Shown piece by piece: positions 1 to 56,500 of a stretch of 64,000 nt of DNA. The stretch lies in assembly GCA_965242925.1 (NCBI GenBank), contig CBDEUM010000012.1, positions 160,001-224,000 on the forward strand. The letters run 5' to 3'. Position 1 is the first letter of the stretch; every line of letters starts with the position of its first letter. The position numbers and the translations under genes were made by a program. This stretch comes from Roseibacillus sp. GTDB taxonomy: Bacteria; Verrucomicrobiota; Verrucomicrobiia; Verrucomicrobiales; Akkermansiaceae. A model generated the notes under the pieces. The model saw nothing but the letters and a program-made list of their open reading frames with translations. It searched no databases and was not told the DNA's origin.

Positions 1-315
1 CACGATGTCAATCTTCACCTGGGCCTCACCACAGATCTTCCCAATATCTTTCGTCATACGCTCGATCTCCGATCCCTTCCGTCCGATCACGAGACCAGGA
101 CGGGAGGTATGAAGCGTGACGCGAACGCTGTTCCAGGCCCGTTCGACAACCACCTTGGAGAGAGCGGCAAACTGAAGACGGCCACTCAGATACTTGCGGA
201 CCTTCAGGTCCTCATGGAGCTTCTCGCGGTAGTCCTCGCCCTCGGCGTACCACTTGGAACGCCAATCGTGGTTAACAACGAGTCGGAATCCGATAGGATT
301 TACTTTATGTCCCAT
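1..315 (-). CDS. rpsC: 30S ribosomal protein S3 (5' part, runs off window edge)
   Basis: Manual translation from ATG at 315: MGHKVNPIGFRL...WRSKWYA...TSRPGLVIGRKGSEIE; directly follows rplV. Confidence 0.97.
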   Translation of the reverse strand, partial: MGHKVNPIGFRLVVNHDWRSKWYAEGEDYREKLHEDLKVRKYLSGRLQFAALSKVVVERAWNSVRVTLHTSRPGLVIGRKGSEIERMTKDIGKICGEAQVKIDIV

Positions 316-340
316 AATTCTTGGTGTTGGGGAAAGGGTA

Positions 341-952
341 TCAGTCTTCTTTCTTTTCTTCCTCCGCGGCCTGCTGGCCCTCGGAGGACTCATCGGAAAC
401 TTCCTCTGCGATTTCGCTCACCTCGTCGATTGCTTCCGCTTCGGGTTCATTAGAGATCTCCTCCGTAACTGGAGCAGACTCAACATTGGTCAGATCGTCG
501 TTTTCCTGCGTAGCCGGCACCTCTTCCTCCGTCTCCTCGATCTCAGGCTCTTTCACCTTCGGCGCGGGCTTCTTCTTGCTCTTGGGCTTGCGGTCGCGAG
601 CGGGCTTCTCCTCCACTTCCATTTCATCGGTGAGGATGATATAGATGTGACTGGTGCGTTTGCGGATGGCGCTGGCCGATCCGCGAGCACGGGGCTTGTA
701 GCGACGGAAGGAGGGGCCATCCGAGATGTTGGCTTCCTTCACATGGAGGCTGTCAGCCGCCAGGTCGTGATTGTTCTCGGCATTGGCCACCGCGCTCTTG
801 AGCGTCTTTCCGATCAGAAAGGCCGCCTTCTTGGGGGTGAAATTGAGGGTATCGATGGCGTCGGATACCGGGAGACCTTGAATCTCACGGGCCACATCCC
901 GTGCCTTCTTGGGCGAGATGCGCGCATACTTGTAAACGGAACGAACTTCCAT
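341..952 (-). CDS. rplV: 50S ribosomal protein L22 with ~90-aa charged C-terminal extension
   Basis: MEVRSVYKYARISPKKAR...SAVANAENN...PRARGSASAIRKRTSHIYI; start moved to ATG 952 (track start 1051 overlaps the upstream gene). Confidence 0.97.
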   Translation of the reverse strand: MEVRSVYKYARISPKKARDVAREIQGLPVSDAIDTLNFTPKKAAFLIGKTLKSAVANAENNHDLAADSLHVKEANISDGPSFRRYKPRARGSASAIRKRTSHIYIILTDEMEVEEKPARDRKPKSKKKPAPKVKEPEIEETEEEVPATQENDDLTNVESAPVTEEISNEPEAEAIDEVSEIAEEVSDESSEGQQAAEEEKKED

Positions 953-969
953 GACAGGAGGGGGAGAGA

Positions 970-1686
970 TTAGTTCTTCTTGAGGGAAGCGGTGTCGTTG
1001 AATCGCACCGGATTGTTTTCGTTTTGGAGTTGCTGAACGAACACCCCGCAAATATCGGGGCGCACATCGGCCACCATCGCTTCAGCCACTACCTGGTCGC
1101 CACGCATGATGTTAAAAATCATTCCGATCCGCGCATTCTCCTTCGTGCCCACGTTAAGCACCACCAGACCACTCTTTTCATCGATGCTCTTGACGAGAGC
1201 ATGCTGGAGATTTCCACGGTCGATATTCTGTTCAGGTTTGTTGCGCAATCCCAGTTCCACCTCCAGAGCCCGCAGGTGAGCCTCAAGTTGAGATCGGGCC
1301 TCGGGATCGGCTGTGATGGCGGTCTTGATGAAGGCCTGCGCCGCAGCCGAAAGACGGATGGAAGTTTCCTCCAACCGGCGCAGACGGCGGTCCAGCACGG
1401 TCACGTTCTGCCAGGCCTCCACCGTACGCTCATCGCCATCGCTGAGGAGATCCTTGCCCAAGGCCTGCAGTCGCACCTTGATCTTGACCAGTGCCTCGGC
1501 GGATTCCTTCTCGCGCCTGTTCGCTTCCACCAGGCTTTCTTGCAAACTGCCATTCCGGATTTTCAGTCGAGCGTTTTCGGCCTGGAGCCGAGTCAGGTCG
1601 TCCAACTCCTGACCTCCGGCCACCGAAACTCCCGCCCCTGCCGCCAGAATGGCGCCGAGGATGAACTTTGCGGGAGTATACTTCAT
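970..1686 (-). CDS. Hypothetical exported protein (signal peptide, coiled coil, C-terminal beta-rich domain) between rpsS and rplV
   Basis: 238-aa ORF fills the gap with short spacers (38 nt after rpsS, 17 nt before rplV); MKYTPAKFILGAILAAGAGVSVAG is signal-like. Confidence 0.85.
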   Translation of the reverse strand: MKYTPAKFILGAILAAGAGVSVAGGQELDDLTRLQAENARLKIRNGSLQESLVEANRREKESAEALVKIKVRLQALGKDLLSDGDERTVEAWQNVTVLDRRLRRLEETSIRLSAAAQAFIKTAITADPEARSQLEAHLRALEVELGLRNKPEQNIDRGNLQHALVKSIDEKSGLVVLNVGTKENARIGMIFNIMRGDQVVAEAMVADVRPDICGVFVQQLQNENNPVRFNDTASLKKN

Positions 1687-1724
1687 GTGGAGCGAAGGGT
1701 GGAGTTGCAGGATTCTTCTACGCG

Positions 1725-1994
1725 TTATGTTTTGCCCACGCCCCCGTGAGCCCTGAAAATACGAGTGGGGGCAAATTCGCCCAGCTTGTGACCCACCATG
1801 TTTTCGGTGACATAGACATTGGTGAACACCTTCCCGCTGTGCACGAGGAAGGTGAGCCCCACGAAATCCGGCGTAATCATGGACCGGCGACTCCAGGTCT
1901 TGATTGGCTTCTTATCACCCTGGGCGACCGCAGTATCGATCTTGGCCAGAAGTTTCTGGTCAACGAAAGGACCTTTCTTGAGGGAACGTGGCAT
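1725..1994 (-). CDS. rpsS: 30S ribosomal protein S19
   Basis: [12 protein letters not shown]...KTWSRRSMI...[13 protein letters not shown]. Confidence 0.99.
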
Positions 1995-2006
1995 GATTCA
2001 GAGTGG

Positions 2007-2849
2007 TTAACGCTTCTTCGACTTACGGCGCTCGACAATAACCTTATTGCTGGCCTTGTGTTTGGAGCGCGTACGCTGCCCCTTGGTATGACCCCAGGGT
2101 GACTTCAGGTGCTGGCGACCGCCGCCGGACTTGGACTTGCCCTCCCCGCCACCGTTGGGATGGTCGACCGGGTTCATGCACATTCCACGCACGGTCGGGC
2201 GGACACCCTTCCAGCGGGTCCGGCCGGCCTTGCCGGAGACCTCATTCATGTGATCGCGGTTTCCAACCTGACCGATCGTGCAATAGCAATTCTCGTGGAA
2301 GCGGCGGATTTCGCCCGACGGCATCTTGATCAGGGCGTATCCACCTTCCCGGTTGGAGACCACTGCCTGCTGTCCAGCAGATCGGGCCACCTTCCCTCCT
2401 CCTCCCGGACGCAATTCAATGTTATGAACGGCCGTTCCAAGCGGAACGCTCTTGAGAGGCATCGCGTTGCCGGGAGTAGGCGGAGCATTATCCCCTGCCA
2501 GCACGGTAGCTCCCACCTGAAGTCCCACCGGACAGAGGATATAAGCCTTCTCGCCATCGGAATAGTCAATGAGAGCGATACGGCAGGTCCGGTTCGGATC
2601 GTACTCCACCGCGATCACCCGGGCCTCCACCTCGCGCTTCCTTCGCTTGAAATCAATCAGGCGGTATTTGCGCTTGTGACCTCCGCCGATATGACGACAG
2701 GTGATTCTGCCCTGGTTGTTCCGACCCCCGCTCTTGGGAAGCGGTTCGGTCAGTCCCTTCTCGGGCTTCTTCTTGGTGATCTCCTCGTAGGTCGGCCACA
2801 TCTTGTAGCGGTTCGACGGAGTCACTGGTTTGAAGCTTCTAAGTGGCAT
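2007..2849 (-). CDS. rplB: 50S ribosomal protein L2
   Basis: [38 protein letters not shown]. Confidence 0.99.
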
Positions 2850-2937
2850 GATTGGAAATTGGTTAAATCGCTAAATCGTCAATTTGTTGATTCGGATCCG
2901 GCTTCCCTAATTCAAATCTATTCAACGGGTTGAATCG

Positions 2938-3222
2938 CTAGATGAGATCGATGGTGTCTCCGTCCTTCAGGCGAACCATGGCCTTCTTCCAGGATGCAGT
3001 CTTGCCCTGGTCCGCACGGCGCTCTCGCTTGACCTTGCCGCTGTAATTGGCCGTGCGCACGCCAATCACCTTCACCCCGAAGGCCTGCTCTACAGCACGC
3101 CTGATCTCGATCTTGTTGGCACGACGGTCCACCTTGAAGACGTATTCATTGTTGAGCTCCTGCAGCAGGGTGGACTTCTCGGAAAGTCTCACGTTATCGA
3201 TGACGGAGTAGATGTCTCTCAT
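2938..3222 (-). CDS. rplW: 50S ribosomal protein L23
   Basis: LSEKS, YVFKVDRRANKIEI, WKKAMVRL; operon position. Confidence 0.97.
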   Translation of the reverse strand: MRDIYSVIDNVRLSEKSTLLQELNNEYVFKVDRRANKIEIRRAVEQAFGVKVIGVRTANYSGKVKRERRADQGKTASWKKAMVRLKDGDTIDLI

Positions 3223-3242
3223 TGTTCAGTGGGGTTCGTTCC

Positions 3243-3854
3243 TTAGCTGGTCCGCGTCGCCAGCACCTCCAGGGCGTCGGCAGTAAGGATAATGGTATCG
3301 TGATAAAGAAGCTCCTCGATGGTGACCTCATTGGCCGGAAGACACATCACACCCGGGAGGTTCCGGTGGGCAAGGAGGGTCCTGTCATCGAACTTGGGCG
3401 CAACCACCAGAACCTTGGTGGCGTCGGTGATCTTCCGCACTTCAGCCTGGAAGGATTTCGTCTTGCCGTCTGCAATCTCAAACGAATCGACCACCTGGAT
3501 GCTCCCGTTCGCAATGCAATCGCCCAACACACGCTGGAGCGCCAGTTTGCGGATCTTCTTGGGAACATTCTTTGAGTAGTCACGCGGACGTGGGCCATGA
3601 GCCACTCCACCTCCGACATATAAAGGCACCTTCGAAGTGCGGTGACGAGCATTACCCGTGCCCTTCTGGCGGTACATCTTACTCCCGGTTCCCCGGATCT
3701 CTCCACGGGTCTTGGTGTTGGCGGTTCCCGAGCGACGATTCGCCTGGTAGGCCACGATCAGGTCGTGCACGGCCTGATCCCCCTTCTCGCGGTTTTCCAC
3801 GATGGTCAGGTTAGCAGCCTTGGCGGCTTCAAGAGTGAGCGTTTTGTCGGACAT
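3243..3854 (-). CDS. rplD: 50S ribosomal protein L4
   Basis: [35 protein letters not shown]. Confidence 0.98.
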
Positions 3855-3884
3855 GTTGCTTCCTGGTTAAGGGGTTCGGTGTAG

Positions 3885-4538
3885 TTATTCCGCGGCAGCA
3901 GGAGCGGACTTTTTCTTCGCAGGACGCACAACAACATAACTTCCCTTTGACCCCGGAACCGCGCCCGAAACAAGGATCACGTTGTCGTCCGGACGCACCT
4001 GCACGATTTTCAGGTTCTGAGTGGTGCGGTTGCGCTGACCATCGTGCCCGGGCATGCGCTGGTTCTTCCAGATCCGACCCGGCCAGGTTCCTGCTCCGAC
4101 CGCCCCGGGACGCCGGTGAGTCATATGACCATGGGAGCCGGGTCCGCCCGCGAATTTGTAGCGCTTGACCACGCCCTGAAAACCCTTCCCCTTGGTCGTG
4201 CCGATCACATCCACCCACTGGCCGTCCTGAAAGAGCCCGACACCCGGGTGGGACTCGGGAAGTTCTTCACCCTCATCCAGATGGAACTCCCGGATAACGC
4301 GTTTGGCGGAAATTCCGTGCTTCTTGAGATGCCCCATCGCCGGTTGCTTCATGCGCTGCTCCTTCTGGTCGGAGTATGCCACCTGCACCGCATTGTAGCC
4401 GTCCTTGCTGTCGCTCGTCTTGCGTTGTACGAACTCATTACCGGTCACATCGATCACGGTGACCGGGATCGCGCTCCCGGCCTCCTGGTCGAAGACCCGG
4501 GTCATCCCGATTTTTTTGCCAATCAGTCCTAGTGACAT
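3885..4538 (-). CDS. rplC: 50S ribosomal protein L3
   Basis: GKKIGMTRVF, DGYNAVQ, KGKGFQGVVKRY, GAVPG. Confidence 0.99.
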   Translation of the reverse strand: MSLGLIGKKIGMTRVFDQEAGSAIPVTVIDVTGNEFVQRKTSDSKDGYNAVQVAYSDQKEQRMKQPAMGHLKKHGISAKRVIREFHLDEGEELPESHPGVGLFQDGQWVDVIGTTKGKGFQGVVKRYKFAGGPGSHGHMTHRRPGAVGAGTWPGRIWKNQRMPGHDGQRNRTTQNLKIVQVRPDDNVILVSGAVPGSKGSYVVVRPAKKKSAPAAAE

Positions 4539-4570
4539 GGTTGCGTGGAGTTGAATATTTCGGTCTGGAT

Positions 4571-4879
4571 CTAGATGCGGATCGTAATGTCCACCCCGGC
4601 AGGGAGATTGAGTTTCTTGAGTTCGTCCACTGTCCGGGAGGTTGGATCCACAATATCGAGAAGACGCTTATGGGTCCTGATCTCAAACTGCTCGGCTGAT
4701 TTCTTGTTCACGTGCGGAGAGCGGTTCACGGAGAACTTCTCGATCCGGGTCGGCAGGGGAATCGGGCCCGCTATCTTCGCTCCCGTGCGCTTGGCCGTTT
4801 CCACTATCTCCATTGCGGACTTGTCGATCGCCCGATGGTCAAAGGCCCGGAGGCGGATTCTGATTTTCTGGTTTTCCAT
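4571..4879 (-). CDS. rpsJ: 30S ribosomal protein S10
   Basis: [35 protein letters not shown]. Confidence 0.99.
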
Positions 4880-4910
4880 GACGAGAGAAGGGTGTTGGTT
4901 CCGGGGCTGG

Positions 4911-7067
4911 TCAGGCGGCTACTGTTCCGCGTTCCTTGCAGATAGATTCCACTATCGACTGCGGAACGGGATCGAAACTGGCGGGAGTCATCACAAAAGA
5001 GGCGCGTCCCGATGAAATGGTACGAACGTCCGTCGCGTAGCCGAACATTTCAGCCAGGGGCACCTTTGCCCTCACGATGGCCACGTTGCCCTTGGTGCCC
5101 ATTTCCTGAATGTGCCCCCGTCGGCGGTTGATATCGCCCATGATGTCACCCTGGTATTCTTCCGGTGTGGTCACTTCCACATCCATGATGGGTTCCAGCA
5201 GGATGGGTCTGGCCTTCTTGAAGGCGTTCTTCATGGCGAAAATGGCCGCCATTTTGAAAGCGTTTTCGTTGGAGTCGACATCGTGCGATGAACCGTCCGT
5301 GATATTGACGTGCACGTCCACCACCGGATAACCGGCCACCACCCCGTTGGTCATGGCTTCTCCCACGCCCGCGTTGACCGCATTCATGTATTCCTTGGGA
5401 ATCGCTCCACCCACCACCAGGCTCTTGGTCGTCAGACCGCTTCCCTTTTCGCTGGGAGCCACATCAAGGACCACGTGCCCATACTGGCCGCGACCACCGG
5501 TCTGCTTCTTGAGAAGCCCCTCACCATCCGCTTCAGTCGTGATCGTCTCGCGGTAGGCGATCTGGGGCTTGCCCACGTTCGCTTCCACGCTGAACTCCCG
5601 TCGCAAACGGTCGATAATGACCTCCAGGTGCAGTTCCCCCATCCCGGAGATAATGGTCTGCCCGGTCTCCTCATCGGTATATACCACGAAGGTGGGATCC
5701 TCCTCCATGAGACGTCCGAGGCCCATCGACATCTTCTCCTGATCAGCAGTGGTCCTGGGCTCCACCGCCATCGAGATGACCGGTTCCGGGAAGCTCGGCG
5801 GCTCAAGTAAAATATCGAATTTCTGGGCACAAAGAGTGTCACCCGTGGTCACGTTCTTAATCCCCACGACAGCCGCAATGTCACCCGCATAGCAGGTCTG
5901 GATCTCCTCGTGCTTGTCAGCCTGGATCTGGATCAGGCGGCCAATCCGTTCCTTCTTGCGAGTTCGTGGGTTAAAGACCGTGTCACCCTTGGAAACCGTA
6001 CCGGAGTAAACGCGGAAGAAGACCAGTTTCCCCACGTACTTGTCGGCCCACAGCTTGAAGGCCAACGAGCAGAACTTTCCATTGTCATCCGTGGGAGCGA
6101 TCACTTCCACATCTTCATCATCTGCCTCCTGCCCCTTGGCGGCAGGAATCTCGAGCGGACTGGGGAGATAGTCCACCACTGCGTCCACCAGATACTGGAC
6201 CCCTTTATTCTTGAAGGCCGACCCCCCCGCAATGGGGACCACCTTGTTCGCAATGGTGGCGCGGCGCATCGCACGCTTGAGGTCTGTCACCGTGATTTCT
6301 TCCTCCTTGAGAAACTTCTCACCCAACTCGTCGTCAATGTTGGCGAGGGTGTCGAGAATCTCAACGTAAGCCTCCTCCGCGAGAATCAACTGCTGATCAT
6401 CGAGATCCATGATCTCAAAGGTCGAACCCAGTGCATCGTTCTCGGTGTAGACCACCGCCTTCTTGTTGAGCACGTCGATTTGCCCCTTGAGCTGGTCCTC
6501 TGCGCCGATTGGGATGAGAATCCGGAGCGGGGTGGCTCCCAGTTTCTCCCGCACCTCGTCCACCACGTGCTGAAAGTCCGCCCCCACCCGGTCCATCTTG
6601 TTGACGAATACGATGCGGGGAACACTGTATTTGGAAGCCTGCCGCCAGACTGTCTCGGTCTGCGGCTGCACGCCAGCCACTCCGCAGAAAACAACAATCG
6701 CTCCGTCCAGAACGCGGAGGGAACGCTCAACTTCGGCGGTAAAATCAACGTGTCCCGGGGTATCGATGATGTTGACCCGCTGTTTCTGTTCTTCGAACAG
6801 CTTGCAGACACTCTCGTCCTTCTCCTGGACCCACTCACAGGTCACCGCCGCAGAGGTAATGGTGATTCCCCGCTCACGCTCCTGCTCCATATGATCGGTA
6901 GTCGTTGCACCATCATGCACCTCCCCGATCCGGTGAATCATCCCGGTATAGAAGAGAATCCGCTCGGTAAGCGTTGTCTTCCCGGCGTCAATATGTGCCG
7001 CAATCCCGATATTCCGCGTCCGCTCAAGCGGGTACGGTCGATCGGGGCTGTTCGGACTTTCAGACAT
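4911..7067 (-). CDS. fusA: Elongation factor G
   Basis: [36 protein letters not shown]; likely start ATG 7067 (track start 7103). Confidence 0.99.
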
Positions 7068-7112
7068 TCGGGGAAATGCGGCTGTAGCGGTGGCGAGCAT
7101 CAAATCTGTTTC

Positions 7113-7586
7113 TTACCAGCGGAAGTGGGCAAAGGCGCGGTTGGCCTGCGCCATCTTGTGAACGTCGTCGCGCTTGCGAACCGCTCCACCGGTATTATTG
7201 GAGGCATCCTTGATTTCATTGGCAAGGGCGACGTGCATCGGGGTGCCCTTGCGACCACGTGCAAATCCGATAATCCAGCGCATTGCGAGAGCTTCGGACC
7301 GGGAGGCCGCCACCTCGAGGGGAACCTGGTATGTGGCTCCACCAACCCGACGGCTTTTCACCTCCACCCGCGGCTTGGAATTCTCGAGCGCCCGCGTGAC
7401 CACCTCTAGCGGATCAACGGTGTCGGTTCCTTCATTGGCCTTATCGATGGCGGCGTAAACGATCCGCTCAGCCAGGGATCTCTTGCCATCCTTCATCACC
7501 TTGGCGATGAGATGTCCGATCAGATCGCTGTCGAACTTTGGATCCCGTCGATCGGGCTTGTGGTAAACTTTTTTTCTTCGGGCCAT
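7113..7586 (-). CDS. rpsG: 30S ribosomal protein S7
   Basis: EVKSRRVGGATYQVP, HKMAQANRAFAHFRW. Confidence 0.99.
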   Translation of the reverse strand: MARRKKVYHKPDRRDPKFDSDLIGHLIAKVMKDGKRSLAERIVYAAIDKANEGTDTVDPLEVVTRALENSKPRVEVKSRRVGGATYQVPLEVAASRSEALAMRWIIGFARGRKGTPMHVALANEIKDASNNTGGAVRKRDDVHKMAQANRAFAHFRW

Positions 7587-7619
7587 GCTAGTATCTCCCT
7601 TTTCGTTTTCAGGTTCAGA

Positions 7620-7994
7620 TCACTTCTTGGGCCGTTTGGCTCCATACTTGGAGCGACTCTGTTTCCGGTTCTCCACACCGAGGGTATCATGGGATCCCCG
7701 CACAATGTGATAGCGCACCCCTGGCAGATCCTTCACCCGGCCACCGCGCACGAGCACGATGCTGTGCTCCTGCAGATTGTGTCCTTCCCCTCCAATGTAG
7801 GCGATGATCTCGTAGCCGTTGGTGAGACGAACCTTCGCTACCTTACGGAGCGCGGAGTTCGGCTTCTTCGGCGTCCGGGTATATACCTGCAAGCACACTC
7901 CTCTTCGCTGCGGACAATTGGAGAGCGCCGGCGATTTCGATTTTCGGATCGCCTGCTTGCGGCCCTTGCGGACAAGTTGGTTGATGGTCGGCAT
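7620..7994 (-). CDS. rpsL: 30S ribosomal protein S12
   Basis: [34 protein letters not shown]. Confidence 0.99.
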
Positions 7995-8180
7995 GATTCC
8001 TGCTTCTTGAAAGTCTCTCGTCGGGTCATTGCATGCTCAAGGAGCGCAGAAGGCAGGCAACGAGGATGACCCTCGCAGGAAGCCTGTTATCCGGAGCTGC
8101 ACCCGATGAGCTGGTAAATCGCTGTTTTCCGCCGTTTTCCGTATGGAAATACGGATTCCATCCGCGATTTTGGGGCCGCG

Positions 8181-8655: not shown

Positions 8656-8727
8656 GGCAGGGTAGCTCAGGGGTAGAGCAAAGGACTCATAAGCCTTGGG
8701 TCGGCGGTTCGAATCCGCCCCCTGCTA
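8656..8727 (+). tRNA. tRNA with CAT anticodon, non-initiator (elongator Met or Ile2); CCA not encoded
   Basis: Acceptor GGCAGGG/CCCTGCT, D-stem GCTC/GAGC, anticodon loop CTCATAA, T-arm GGCGG-TTCGAAT-CCGCC; position 1 is G paired, not the fMet C1 mismatch. Confidence 0.95.
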
Positions 8728-11235: not shown

Positions 11236-11835
11236 CTATTTGCCGCCCTCGGGGGTGGGAGCGGGTGCATCCTTGTTCAGCACACCCAGCAGGCCCGCCG
11301 TGATGTCGGTGGCATCCTTGGTGTAGAGCAGGAAGGGGACCTGAGAGGTACTCATGCCGGACTTGTCGAAAACGTAATCGTAGGCATCGGACTTCGCACG
11401 ATCTTCCACCAGTTTCCGGATCTCCTCGAGGATACCCCGCATCTTCTGCATCATCTTCTCGTTGAGGGCAGTATTACGGCGCTGGAGAAATTCCCGGCGC
11501 TCCCGGTCAAGGGCCACCCCTTCCTGAGTCTTCATCTGGAAGTCCTTGAAAAGCTCCTGCTTCCGCTTGTCACTGAGAGAAGGATCGTCCAACTGCTTGC
11601 GCAGGCCCTGCAACTCACCCTCCAGGGCACGGATGGTTTCCAGACGATCATTGTTGTTTTGCTGGATCTTGGCACGCTCGACGTTGACTTCCCTCTGAGC
11701 GTCGGTCGTGCGATGATACTGCTTGAATAGCGTCTGCATATCCACCGTGGCGATCTTGAGTTTGTCCTGCGCGGTCGCGGGCAGAGCAAAAAGCAGGGCA
11801 GTAACAGCAGCGAGAGTCAGTTGGCGAAAGGTCAT
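11236..11835 (-). CDS. skp: Skp/OmpH periplasmic chaperone
   Basis: Signal peptide, KIATVDMQTLF, long helical body, YDYVFD...DIT. Confidence 0.9.
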   Translation of the reverse strand: MTFRQLTLAAVTALLFALPATAQDKLKIATVDMQTLFKQYHRTTDAQREVNVERAKIQQNNNDRLETIRALEGELQGLRKQLDDPSLSDKRKQELFKDFQMKTQEGVALDRERREFLQRRNTALNEKMMQKMRGILEEIRKLVEDRAKSDAYDYVFDKSGMSTSQVPFLLYTKDATDITAGLLGVLNKDAPAPTPEGGK

Positions 11836-11909: not shown

Positions 11910-12560
11910 TCAATCCCTCGAAGGGCCGTTTTTGTTGAGTTCCTTGAGGATCATGGGCGTGATGTCCATGGCGTCCCTGACAAAAAGGAGCATGGGAACC
12001 TGGGAGCTACTGGTCCCGTCGATATCGAACACCAGATCGAAGCCCAGGCGCTCGGCCTGTCCGGCCACGAGGTCGTGAATCTCCTGAAGGAGCGCATCCA
12101 TGCGCGCCACCATCTTCCTGTTCAACTCGGTATGGCGAGCCTGCAGATCGGACGTCCGCTCGTGGTTGATCCGCTCCCGCTCATGAAACCGCACACCCTT
12201 TTCACGCTCCAGCGAGGAACGGTTTTGCCCGGTCAGATTCGTGCTCTGCAAGGAAACCTCCAATTCCCGCAGGCTCTGATCCATGCTCCGTAGACGACCG
12301 GCCACATCATTGTGCTCCTTCTGGATACGGGCGCGCTCCATGTTGATCTCCTCCTCCGCCTTATCCACCTTGTGATAATTGCGGAAGAGTTTCTGGATAT
12401 TGACAACTGCCGTCCGCAGCTTTTCTTCTTCTACAGACCCCACCACCTTCTCACTCGAACCGAGCCTGGCAGCAACTTTCTCCTGATCCTCGTTTCCACT
12501 CTGCGCCCAGGCCGGGAACGCCAAGCCAAGTCCCAGTCCCAACGCCATTAGTTTTCTCAT
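11910..12560 (-). CDS. Second Skp/OmpH-family chaperone
   Basis: Signal peptide (AWA-Q), TAVVNIQKLF, GFDLVFD...MDIT. Confidence 0.85.
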   Translation of the reverse strand: MRKLMALGLGLGLAFPAWAQSGNEDQEKVAARLGSSEKVVGSVEEEKLRTAVVNIQKLFRNYHKVDKAEEEINMERARIQKEHNDVAGRLRSMDQSLRELEVSLQSTNLTGQNRSSLEREKGVRFHERERINHERTSDLQARHTELNRKMVARMDALLQEIHDLVAGQAERLGFDLVFDIDGTSSSQVPMLLFVRDAMDITPMILKELNKNGPSRD

Positions 12561-54469: not shown

Positions 54470-56500
54470 TCAGTTCCTCCCCTCTAATCCGCCTTCCGTT
54501 CCTTCAGCCTGCGCCGGCTCATACCACTCGCCGCGCAGCCAATCAACGATGAAGCCGATTTCCTCGTCGCTGATTTGAGCCGGCCGTTCAAGCGATCCAT
54601 CCTCCCTGTATTTCGGGCCGAAAATGGACATGCGGTCATTTCGTTTCCCGTAGAAACGCTTGTGCGCGGGATTCCTGATGAAGGCAATTTGCCACTCCCG
54701 GTTGCCATAGCCCGTCAGATCGATGCCCTTCTCCCCTTCCCCGTGGTAGACGTGACAGTCGGTGCATTCAATCGAAAGCAATTCACGACCCTCCTCGACA
54801 AGTTCTGCATCAGCCGCATCTAGCACGCTCTGGGCCTTGAGTTTGGCTTCCGCAGAAAGGGCCACTGCCATCGCGTGAACCTCTTCGGGAGGAAGATCCC
54901 CAAAGCTGTCACCCTTGAGAAACTTCAACATCTTGCTGCCTTCCATGAGCTTGGTTGCGCCCAGGAGATCACGATGCGCGAAGGACTCCGCATTCAGAAT
55001 ATTCCTGGACCACTCACGCCCCGCGAAGCCTTTCAGATCGGAGGCGCTCTGCCTGTTCTTGACCGGTTGGCCCGTTCCGTCGTGCCCACCGTAAACATGG
55101 CAGGAGGCGCAGTTCTTCGCAAAAAGATTGGGCCCCTGGATAAGCGGATCGTTGCGCAGCAAGCTGATCGCCCCCTCCGGCGGGATCCCGTCGGGCGACT
55201 TGGCGAGCACCTTGACCCGGTCGGCTTCACGATGGGCTACCGCCACTGCCGCCTGATGCCCGGCACTGGTCCAGTCATGCGTAAAGGCCACCAGCGTGTA
55301 ATGCACGAACCCTCCCAGCACTACCACGAGGAATACGAGGTTGAACATGTGCCCCATCCGCTTGCGGCCAATGAAGGGCATCAGGAAGACAACCGTCGCC
55401 ACCACGCCCGGAATGACGAAAGCGCCCGTCATCAGGTCGAAGTCCTTGAGCAGGGCAAAGAGGGCCATGAAATACCAGTCCGGACGGGCCGCGGAGTAGT
55501 TTTCCGATGGATCAGCGGGCGCGCTCAGCTCCGTTCCAACCTGGCTCACGAAAAAGAGGATCCCGCCCATCACCACTGCACAGGCAATGGCATCCCGCAG
55601 GACCTGGTCCGGCCAGAAATAAGCGTCCCCGCGACGGGGGCGGGCGTTGTCCTCTTCCTCCAGGCCTCTCTTGCGCACGTAAAGATAGAGCACCCGCAAC
55701 AGACAGAGCAGCGTGATCACTCCGGGCACGATTCCCACCAACGGCTTGGAGCCCTCCGGGAAAGCCTCCCAGTTGATCCCAACCATCACCATCGCAAAAC
55801 CCATCGTAAAAAGGGAGACCCACCAGAAGGGGCGGGTGGAGGCGGCTGTCTTGTGTGCCGCCGGTGTGATCCCGTGCTTCCGGAACAGATAGATGTGCAG
55901 CACGATGAGACCGATCAGGAGGGCCGGCAGCACCCCGGCATGCAGGGCAAAGAAACGGGTGAGGGTATGATGCCCTGCCTCGTTGCCGCCGATGAGAAGC
56001 TGCTTGAGATAATCTCCGATGAGGGGCGTGTTCCCCACGATGTTGGTGGCTACCTCGGTAGCCCAGTAGCCTTTCTGGTCCCAGGGCAGGAGATAGCCGG
56101 TGAGCCCGAGACCCATCGTCACTCCCAGGAGGGCGAGGCCAAACCAGAAGTTGAATTCCCGCGGGGCCTTGTAGGCCCCGTCCACAAGCACCTGGACCAG
56201 ATGAAGGACCAGTAGCACGATCATGAACTGCGAAGTCCAGTGATGAATCCCCCGTAGCCAGTCGCCGCCTTTCACGTTCTCCTGGAGATGATAAACGCTC
56301 TCCCACGCCGAGTTCGCACTCGGACTGTAGAACATCCATAGCATGATCCCGGTAATGAACTGGACCAGGATGGCAAAGGTCAGGGTGCTCCCCCACACAT
56401 AGCGCCAGCGCGCCCCGCCAGGGATATTTTCGAAAAGGGCCTCTCGGGTGAGCCGCCGGATTCCGGTACGGTTGTCGATCCAGTTCAGCAGGTTCTTCAT
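54470..56500 (-). CDS. Cytochrome b of a Rieske/cytb complex fused to a diheme cytochrome c
   Basis: RGIHHW...LH, GYLLPWDQKGYWA, FFALH...LH, RPDWYF; CASCH and CTDCH. Confidence 0.95.
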   Translation of the reverse strand: MKNLLNWIDNRTGIRRLTREALFENIPGGARWRYVWGSTLTFAILVQFITGIMLWMFYSPSANSAWESVYHLQENVKGGDWLRGIHHWTSQFMIVLLVLHLVQVLVDGAYKAPREFNFWFGLALLGVTMGLGLTGYLLPWDQKGYWATEVATNIVGNTPLIGDYLKQLLIGGNEAGHHTLTRFFALHAGVLPALLIGLIVLHIYLFRKHGITPAAHKTAASTRPFWWVSLFTMGFAMVMVGINWEAFPEGSKPLVGIVPGVITLLCLLRVLYLYVRKRGLEEEDNARPRRGDAYFWPDQVLRDAIACAVVMGGILFFVSQVGTELSAPADPSENYSAARPDWYFMALFALLKDFDLMTGAFVIPGVVATVVFLMPFIGRKRMGHMFNLVFLVVVLGGFVHYTLVAFTHDWTSAGHQAAVAVAHREADRVKVLAKSPDGIPPEGAISLLRNDPLIQGPNLFAKNCASCHVYGGHDGTGQPVKNRQSASDLKGFAGREWSRNILNAESFAHRDLLGATKLMEGSKMLKFLKGDSFGDLPPEEVHAMAVALSAEAKLKAQSVLDAADAELVEEGRELLSIECTDCHVYHGEGEKGIDLTGYGNREWQIAFIRNPAHKRFYGKRNDRMSIFGPKYREDGSLERPAQISDEEIGFIVDWLRGEWYEPAQAEGTEGGLEGRN

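Follow-up and report, generated by a model that had tools for sequence, protein, structure and literature searches.

We analyzed a window of 64,000 nucleotides from a Roseibacillus sp. genome of the Akkermansiaceae (Verrucomicrobiota), namely positions 160,001 to 224,000 of contig CBDEUM010000012.1 (GenBank assembly GCA_965242925.1). Near the start of this window, the S10 ribosomal protein operon carries a gene of 238 codons between rpsS and rplV, a pair that is among the most stable gene adjacencies in bacteria. This gene, which we call X, has a known barrel fold, belongs to an unnamed family, and occupies an unusual and deeply conserved operon position; its product is predicted to be exported. 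A reading of the locus from its letters and open reading frames (ORFs), made without database searches (the sequence-only reading), had singled out a co-oriented 238-aa ORF separated from its neighbors by 38- and 17-nt spacers, and both the ORF and the spacers are confirmed. The features of the locus, in order of transcription, are as follows.

2007..2849, minus strand: rplB (from the ORF list)
1725..1994, minus strand: rpsS (uS19, 89 aa), the upstream neighbor of X (Pfam Ribosomal_S19, E = 9.2e-36)
1687..1724, minus strand: rpsS–X spacer, 38 nt (from the sequence)
970..1686, minus strand: gene X (P0001), encoding a predicted exported coiled-coil and β-barrel protein of 238 aa (from the ORF list, ATG start)
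1618..1686, minus strand: predicted signal peptide of X, residues 1 to about 23 (from the sequence)
1255..1623, minus strand: helical region of X, with helices at residues 22–80, 86–122, and 128–144 (AlphaFold2 model)
973..1209, minus strand: six-stranded β-barrel of X, residues ~160–238 (model and structural matches)
953..969, minus strand: X–rplV spacer, 17 nt (from the sequence)
341..952, minus strand: rplV (uL22, 203 aa, ATG at 952), the downstream neighbor of X (Pfam Ribosomal_L22, E = 1.8e-35)

Gene X is real and conserved. An exhaustive search of 1.84 billion representative sequences returned 355 matches at E ≤ 0.001, of which 141 reach E ≤ 1e-10; a single-sequence search with X gave 69 clustered homologues whose sources, where named, are Roseibacillus. 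Six comparisons with congeners were tried, and in the three with unsaturated dS the ratio of nonsynonymous to synonymous substitution rates (dN/dS) is 0.12, 0.14, and 0.14, indicating purifying selection. Because of these values and the 355 matching cluster representatives, the ORF is beyond what chance would produce. Within the family, 98 of 101 genomes carry X as a single copy; these take in every good-quality genome (89) and every genus (20), and the three genomes without a match are 85–89% complete. The sequence identity of X tracks that of rplB (Spearman 0.87 across 48 loci from related, and hence non-independent, genomes), which fits vertical descent. In Akkermansia muciniphila the orthologue is Amuc_0299 (AMUC_RS01705, B2UMT5), located at L024:1498–2205 on the minus strand.

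No Pfam or NCBIfam family matches X at threshold, and the best match, to ZapB (E = 0.017), is an artefact of the coiled coil. The lack of any ribosomal or assembly-factor family among the Pfam and NCBIfam matches points to a non-ribosomal gene, as the sequence-only reading had proposed. We found no paper with "Amuc_0299" or "B2UMT5" in its main text, and literature searches on the S10 operon in Verrucomicrobia (with the listed papers judged by title and opening of the abstract) and on signature proteins of the Planctomycetes–Verrucomicrobia–Chlamydiae (PVC) group yielded nothing on the X gene; the available passages of PMC2474590 mention neither S19 nor L22. The family and its operon position thus appear to be undescribed.

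The same strand upstream of rpsS and X encodes rplB, rplW, rplD, rplC, rpsJ, and fusA, and the rplV product also matches NCBIfam TIGR01044 (E = 2.4e-35). In a consensus scan of window positions 1–8000, both spacers and their flanks are free of promoter-like and terminator-like sites: the two promoter-like sites, at 272 and 4532, both lie on the plus strand, and none of the ten terminator-like sites (7.3 expected) falls within 900–1760. There are no inverted repeats in 800–1900, where the direct repeats are only short (12–16 nt), in agreement with the earlier remark that the gene has no obvious terminator or mobile-element ends. The rpsS–X spacer is pyrimidine-rich and without a Shine–Dalgarno-like run. 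The X ORF has a GC content at third codon positions (GC3) of 0.686; the ribosomal genes have 0.691 and the genome background has 0.708, and given this likeness to its neighbors X shows no sign of recent acquisition. A mobile element or recent insertion is not supported, given the absence of inverted repeats, the neighbor-like GC3, and the same placement of X in relatives.

The order rplB–rpsS–X–rplV is found in 20 of 20 family loci and in 29 of 29 further loci (23 of the same family, one of another family of the order, and five of other families of the class). Because these 49 loci were picked by similarity to X, we also drew samples centered on rplV using TIGR01044 alone. An ORF matching the barrel model (E ≤ 4e-6) lies directly upstream of rplV in 20 of the 30 loci of the phylum sample; rpsS adjoins rplV in eight (gap 40–155 nt), and the remaining two, both from one genus, show neither arrangement. 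The class sample, also of 30 rplV loci and overlapping the first by seven, has the barrel ORF upstream in 21 and rpsS adjoining rplV in nine (gap 27–175 nt). The synteny survey suggested by the sequence-only reading therefore shows an order kept well beyond the lineage of origin. Names attached to identical or clustered proteins at X loci are Roseibacillus, Akkermansia muciniphila, Terrimicrobiaceae, Phragmitibacter flavus, and "Verrucomicrobium sp. GAS474," and further Opitutales (Rariglobus hedericola), Kiritimatiellia, and Lentisphaeria.

Ten genomes with adjacent rpsS and rplV (95–99% complete) were searched with a profile of an alignment of 114 X sequences (alignment A1); nothing was found at E ≤ 0.001 in eight of them, and the other two have only barrel-type matches elsewhere. 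X is thus not universal in the phylum, and several lineages represented by near-complete genomes are without it. In the part of PMC12283558 available to us, rpsS and rplV of Planctopirus limnophila have consecutive locus tags (Plim_0481 and Plim_0482), and for this reason the insertion seems to be specific to Verrucomicrobiota in a broad sense. The earlier phrase "of this lineage" was consequently too narrow, X being spread over the phylum, yet X is missing from several of its lineages.

Of 20 weak phylum-level matches to X that were fetched, 13 lie just upstream of rplV and seven lie away from ribosomal genes. In seven of the 13, no rpsS is seen in the 2.5 kb before X, which instead follows a different long ORF, so that X stays with rplV when the operon is split. 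The X–rplV spacer has a median length of 22 nt over 82 X-like loci. We also observed that at L054, L055, L058, L064, L065, L067, and L068 the S10 operon seems to be split exactly before X, with X–rplV–rpsC kept; L065 and L068 are Lentisphaeria and Kiritimatiellia by name.

The seven relatives distant from rplV are paralogue-like proteins that combine a hydrophobic N-terminus with a coiled coil and a barrel. Paralogue-like proteins away from ribosomal loci were noted in the Opitutaceae-type L053, L056, L057, L059, and L063. The Roseibacillus genome itself has a paralogue-like pair outside the window, at C29:53710–54621 and 54643–55452 (plus strand), encoding proteins of 303 and 269 aa; both have a hydrophobic N-terminus and a long coiled coil, and their barrels match the model at E = 1.1e-7 and 0.028. 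The gene context of this pair and of the rplV-distant X-like genes at L060 and L061 gave no functional hint.

The N-terminus of X opens with a positively charged n-region, which leads into a hydrophobic core of ~15 residues; small residues occupy −3 and −1, and the start of the presumed mature protein is acidic. These features are consistent with the signal peptide proposed in the sequence-only reading. Among 82 upstream ORFs that match the barrel model, 77 have a hydrophobic N-terminal peak (12 residues, Kyte–Doolittle ≥ 1.5), and the five that do not include three first-start ORFs overlapping the end of rpsS. A lipobox cysteine is absent in most orthologues. We infer from these sequence features that X is exported via Sec and that its signal peptide is probably cleaved. 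The hydrophobic segment follows positive charges and precedes an acidic stretch, a pattern that predicts either an N-in/C-out orientation or cleavage and so speaks against a cytoplasmic or membrane-tethered ribosome-associated factor. Such a factor would account for a gene within the S10 operon and for the resemblance of the barrel to Gar1 (Z 7.4) and to the N-terminal barrels of ring ATPases; however, X matches no ribosomal or assembly-factor family and its best structural matches are periplasmic, and we consider this explanation barely credible.

An AlphaFold2 model of X based on alignment A1 (mean pLDDT 86.4), which replaced a poor single-sequence model (pLDDT 48.5), has an N-terminal hydrophobic helix at residues 8–18 followed by the long helices listed above. 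Positions a and d of residues 25–80 are occupied by leucine, isoleucine, valine, or methionine at a fraction of 0.62, versus 0.40 in shuffles (p = 0.005), and this heptad periodicity of the first helix upholds the coiled coil of the sequence-only reading. A break with the motif LEALG is conserved at about residue 77, and G77 is nearly invariant. The lengths of X-like ORFs range from 111 to 368 aa, and the Opitutales forms (111–125 aa) consist of a signal peptide and a barrel only. Because these forms keep nothing else, we take the barrel to be the functional core of the protein and the coiled coil to be a variable arm for spacing or oligomerization.

The barrel is modeled with six strands between residues 163 and 235 (pLDDT 96–98 over residues 161–230). 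Residues G180, G188, and R209, which are invariant in A1, and R195, G214, and D231, which are nearly so, lie within it, and the residues quoted in the sequence-only reading (VVLNVGTKENARIGMIFNIMRG ... VADVR) are residues 174–209 of the X translation. The top structural match of residues 155–237 among 48,161 chains is chain 5 of 8z5n (Z 11.1, rmsd 1.9 Å over 75 residues), a Vibrio LPHT-ring entry; we take this chain to be FlgT from its length and the entry title. Next are the N-terminal crown barrels of rotary and related ATPases (Z 9.0–9.3), with EscN at 8.4 and FliI at 8.1; further matches are HerA (Z 8.6), four MreC entries (Z 8.5, 8.1, 7.5, and 7.4), Gar1, and TsaP (Z 6.8). A Foldseek search also places 8z5n first (E = 9.4e-4) and finds FlgT 3w1e at rank 8 (E = 2.0e-3). 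Pfam FlgT_C matches 31 of 114 relatives weakly (best E = 5.5e-4), and the A1 profile matches TsaP on the barrel (E = 0.021). X itself has no match to PF16538 (gathering score 27 bits) at E ≤ 1, and there is none genome-wide at E ≤ 0.1. The earlier comparison to a FlgT C-terminal type barrel was thus right about the six-stranded fold, whereas X is not a member of PF16538. No longer, fused forms of the barrel were found among 30 candidates, which is weak evidence. A protein atlas returned only unnamed clusters from Verrucomicrobiota, apart from a lead at 0.82 to a cluster from Planctomycetota, 40% of whose members carry FlgT_C.

X shares the six-stranded barrel of FlgT (PF16538; PDB 3w1e and the 8z5n chain), and like FlgT, which is periplasmic and exported, it would leave the cytoplasm by way of its predicted signal peptide. 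In the model, however, X has a single barrel and a coiled coil in place of the N-terminal and middle domains of FlgT, and its gene lies in the S10 operon, unlike the flagellar gene setting of FlgT. Roseibacillus and Akkermansia are described as non-motile. TsaP, the secretin-associated protein of type IVa pili (PDB 3jc8 chain Ta), builds a periplasmic ring and has a FlgT-like barrel that matches X by profile and by structure; X differs in its single barrel and coiled coil, in having no LysM domain found by Pfam, and in showing no linkage to pilus genes.

The order of elements in MreC (PF04085; PDB 6zlv, 7eft, 2j5u, and 2qf4) is also similar: in both proteins a hydrophobic segment at the N-terminus is followed by a coiled coil and then by a barrel of the same class. 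Together with the four MreC entries at Z 7.4–8.5, weak Pfam MreC matches in 4 of 114 relatives, and an hhalign alignment of a similar glycine-rich strand–turn motif, this could suggest that X is a divergent MreC-like regulator, anchored in the membrane and scaffolding or activating peptidoglycan synthases. Nevertheless, X has no match to PF04085, and hhalign of A1 against the MreC of the same genome gives a probability of only 0.2 (E = 0.36). That canonical MreC is encoded elsewhere, at C34:167254–167700 (PF04085, E = 3.9e-32, above the cut-off), and the idea that X is the MreC of the cell was rejected on these two grounds. Further differences are the single barrel of X as opposed to two in the MreC structure, an N-terminal segment that in most orthologues looks cleavable rather than like a stable anchor, the gene context, and the retention of X in Akkermansia, which is oval rather than rod-shaped. 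We therefore regard an MreC-like function as improbable. The sequence-only reading had also mentioned a division component, a suggestion for which we find no support.

X is transcribed. In marine metatranscriptomes (four runs from four studies), near-identical sequence (95–99%) covers X, and RNA contigs cross the rplV–X spacer in all four runs (634–1180, 608–1176, 703–1011, and 850–1021) and the rpsS–X spacer in three (1215–2900, 1421–1829, and 1491–2900). A stranded RNA-seq study of Akkermansia, in the part of PMC6538878 available to us, gives DESeq2-normalized sense-strand counts for Amuc_0299 of 98 with mucin and 196 without; the corresponding counts are 32.5 and 369 for rplV, 32.4 and 241 for rpsS, 81 and 1780 for rplB, and 46 and 654 for rpsC. 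When these counts are divided by the gene lengths at L024, X with mucin (~138 per kb) is about level with its neighbors (66–120 per kb). Entries for Amuc_0299 or B2UMT5 were absent from the portions available of the supplements of PMC4960237, PMC11148096, and PMC13055324, and we found no proteomic record of the protein. The codon adaptation of X (0.703) lies within the range of the ribosomal genes (0.655–0.767) and close to the genome median (0.700), and is uninformative on the abundance proposed in the sequence-only reading.

Essentiality data, which the sequence-only reading had proposed as a check, exist for a probable homologue. In the available part of a transposon-directed insertion-site sequencing (TraDIS) study of Verrucomicrobium spinosum (PMC12283558), rplV is VSP_RS22555, rpsS is VSP_RS22565, and the sole tag between them is VSP_RS22560. 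With an insertion index of 0.00127, this gene is classed as essential and occupies row 28 of the table in ascending order of index; its ribosomal neighbors have indices of 0.0024–0.0154 (PMC12283558). An index of 0.00127 corresponds to one insertion in 785 bp, which fits the 261-codon orthologues of that family. From position and this length fit, we infer that VSP_RS22560 is the X orthologue.

We hypothesize, with a probability of roughly 55%, that X is a vertically inherited, Sec-exported periplasmic scaffold protein whose supply is partly tied to transcription of the S10 operon. At an early point in verrucomicrobial evolution, the gene would have become fixed directly before rplV. It is probably transcribed on the polycistronic mRNA of the operon, because the spacers of 38 and 17 nt carry no promoter or terminator signal. 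The protein would be exported through its N-terminal signal peptide, and in the periplasm an elongated, perhaps oligomeric, coiled coil would present the C-terminal six-stranded barrel of the FlgT-C, MreC, or TsaP type. The barrels of FlgT, TsaP, and MreC build rings or filaments beside peptidoglycan or outer-membrane machines, and by analogy X most likely serves as a structural scaffold or spacer, in amounts at least partly set by ribosomal-operon transcription. X is not a ribosome component. Its position may be compared with those of secY, adk, and map, non-ribosomal genes that are stably embedded in the spc operon and co-transcribed with it, one of them with an envelope or export function; these three are near-universal and lie at the end of the spc operon, whereas X splits rpsS and rplV within the S10 operon in one phylum.

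Several observations weigh against this hypothesis. The barrels at Z 8.4–9.3 include those of the ATPase crown and HerA, so that the fold alone names no function. The RNA contigs fall short of proving one continuous transcript, and RNA libraries may be contaminated with DNA. The TraDIS call may stem from polarity of the insertions on rplV and on the essential genes that follow it, a matter that the available part of PMC12283558 does not discuss. Nor can X be essential in general, because rpsS directly adjoins rplV in eight loci of the phylum sample and nine of the class sample (30 loci each) and the A1 profile finds no match in eight of the ten genomes searched. Finally, in the available counts of PMC6538878, Amuc_0299 rises 2-fold without mucin while its ribosomal neighbors rise 7- to 25-fold, leaving X at ~276 per kb versus 892–2126 per kb for the neighbors, or 3–8 times lower. 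These counts show that Amuc_0299 is transcribed at a level not rigidly tied to the ribosomal genes; the coupling is loose, and the unequal change could reflect segmental mRNA decay or a control of X that is separate from the rest of the operon. The earlier proposal of expression together with ribosome synthesis is consequently only partly borne out.

The unequal response could instead mean that X is a historical passenger, a dispensable periplasmic protein whose position is a frozen accident unconnected in function with ribosome output and whose level is set separately, through local RNA structure, segmental mRNA decay, or weak translation. In the same direction, the start region of X is predicted to fold stably: window positions 1590–1724 on the minus strand reach −54.1 kcal/mol (z = −2.10 versus dinucleotide shuffles), in a predicted hairpin that pairs the rpsS–X spacer with the signal-peptide coding region and contains the X start codon. 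The 135 nt at the X start have a mean z of −1.50 over 67 distinct loci, with 39% below −2, unlike an rplV-start control (mean z −0.16, 6% below −2). We conjecture that this fold sets the translation of X apart from that of its neighbors, although RNAalifold finds no consensus pairs (0) in 14 5′ regions from the genus Akkermansia. The loss of X from several lineages and a codon usage the same as the genome background also suit a passenger. An accident of position would, however, hardly explain why the X–rplV adjacency is kept across classes, even without rpsS upstream, with spacers that stay short (median 22 nt), and neither the lack of an internal promoter-like site nor the very low insertion index reported for V. 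spinosum favors separate, dispensable expression. We consider the passenger explanation unlikely, though deserving of serious attention.

The retention of X beside rplV rather than rpsS invites two further ideas. uL22, the rplV product, lines the ribosomal exit tunnel that senses arrest peptides, and X, a predicted exported protein, ends 17 nt before rplV (median 22 nt over the 82 loci). X could accordingly be a cis-acting monitoring ORF in the manner of SecM, MifM, and VemP, whose translation and export regulate rplV translation. This seems highly improbable: the C-terminus of X is a well-folded, conserved barrel (pLDDT 94–98) and not a short arrest motif, no conserved arrest-like residues follow the final GD-containing strand, purifying selection extends over the whole protein, and paralogue-like proteins exist away from ribosomal genes. 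Alternatively, and drawing on the X–rplV adjacency that is kept even where rpsS is separated, X might be a phylum-specific, conditionally essential periplasmic organizer for which a translational or mRNA-level coupling to the uL22 gene meters envelope scaffold against ribosome output. We are cautious about this speculation and judge it distinctly unlikely; if it is true, Verrucomicrobiota, Akkermansia among them, would have a dedicated means of linking envelope assembly to growth rate.

Whichever explanation holds, a non-ribosomal gene for a predicted exported protein, unnamed in the databases and literature we searched, is wedged between rpsS and rplV across the phylum. None of the outcomes that would have told against the sequence-only reading was observed: homologues and their transcripts exist, and neither independent transcription nor a match to a characterized family or mobile gene was found. 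Two tractable organisms carry the gene at this position, A. muciniphila (Amuc_0299) and V. spinosum (VSP_RS22560). True essentiality would make X a previously unrecognized core factor of the envelope in a phylum that matters for ecology and medicine, and a case in which production of the envelope is coupled to that of ribosomes; if the essentiality is a polar artefact, X would still be a clean synteny marker for Verrucomicrobiota, Kiritimatiellia, and Lentisphaeria.

Minor observations concern the neighborhood of X and the remainder of the window. The only Rfam match at gathering scores in the 64-kb window is a tRNA at 8656–8727 (plus strand). A Skp-like chaperone function for X was considered and set aside, since the genome has three OmpH/Skp genes and their topology differs from that of X; two of these genes are in tandem at about 11296–11757 and 11937–12413 (minus strand) of the window, and the third copy is on contig C13. 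The rpsC-containing ORF, taken from its first start (window 1–393, minus strand, continuing in the contig), encodes 386 aa versus 229 aa for Akkermansia uS3, which means either that uS3 is extended at its C-terminus or that the gene has been miscalled. The uL22 encoded here has 203 aa, including a lysine- and glutamate-rich C-terminal tail of ~90 residues, compared with only 112 aa in Akkermansia, and it matches NCBIfam NF008917, "L22/unknown domain fusion protein," below the threshold.

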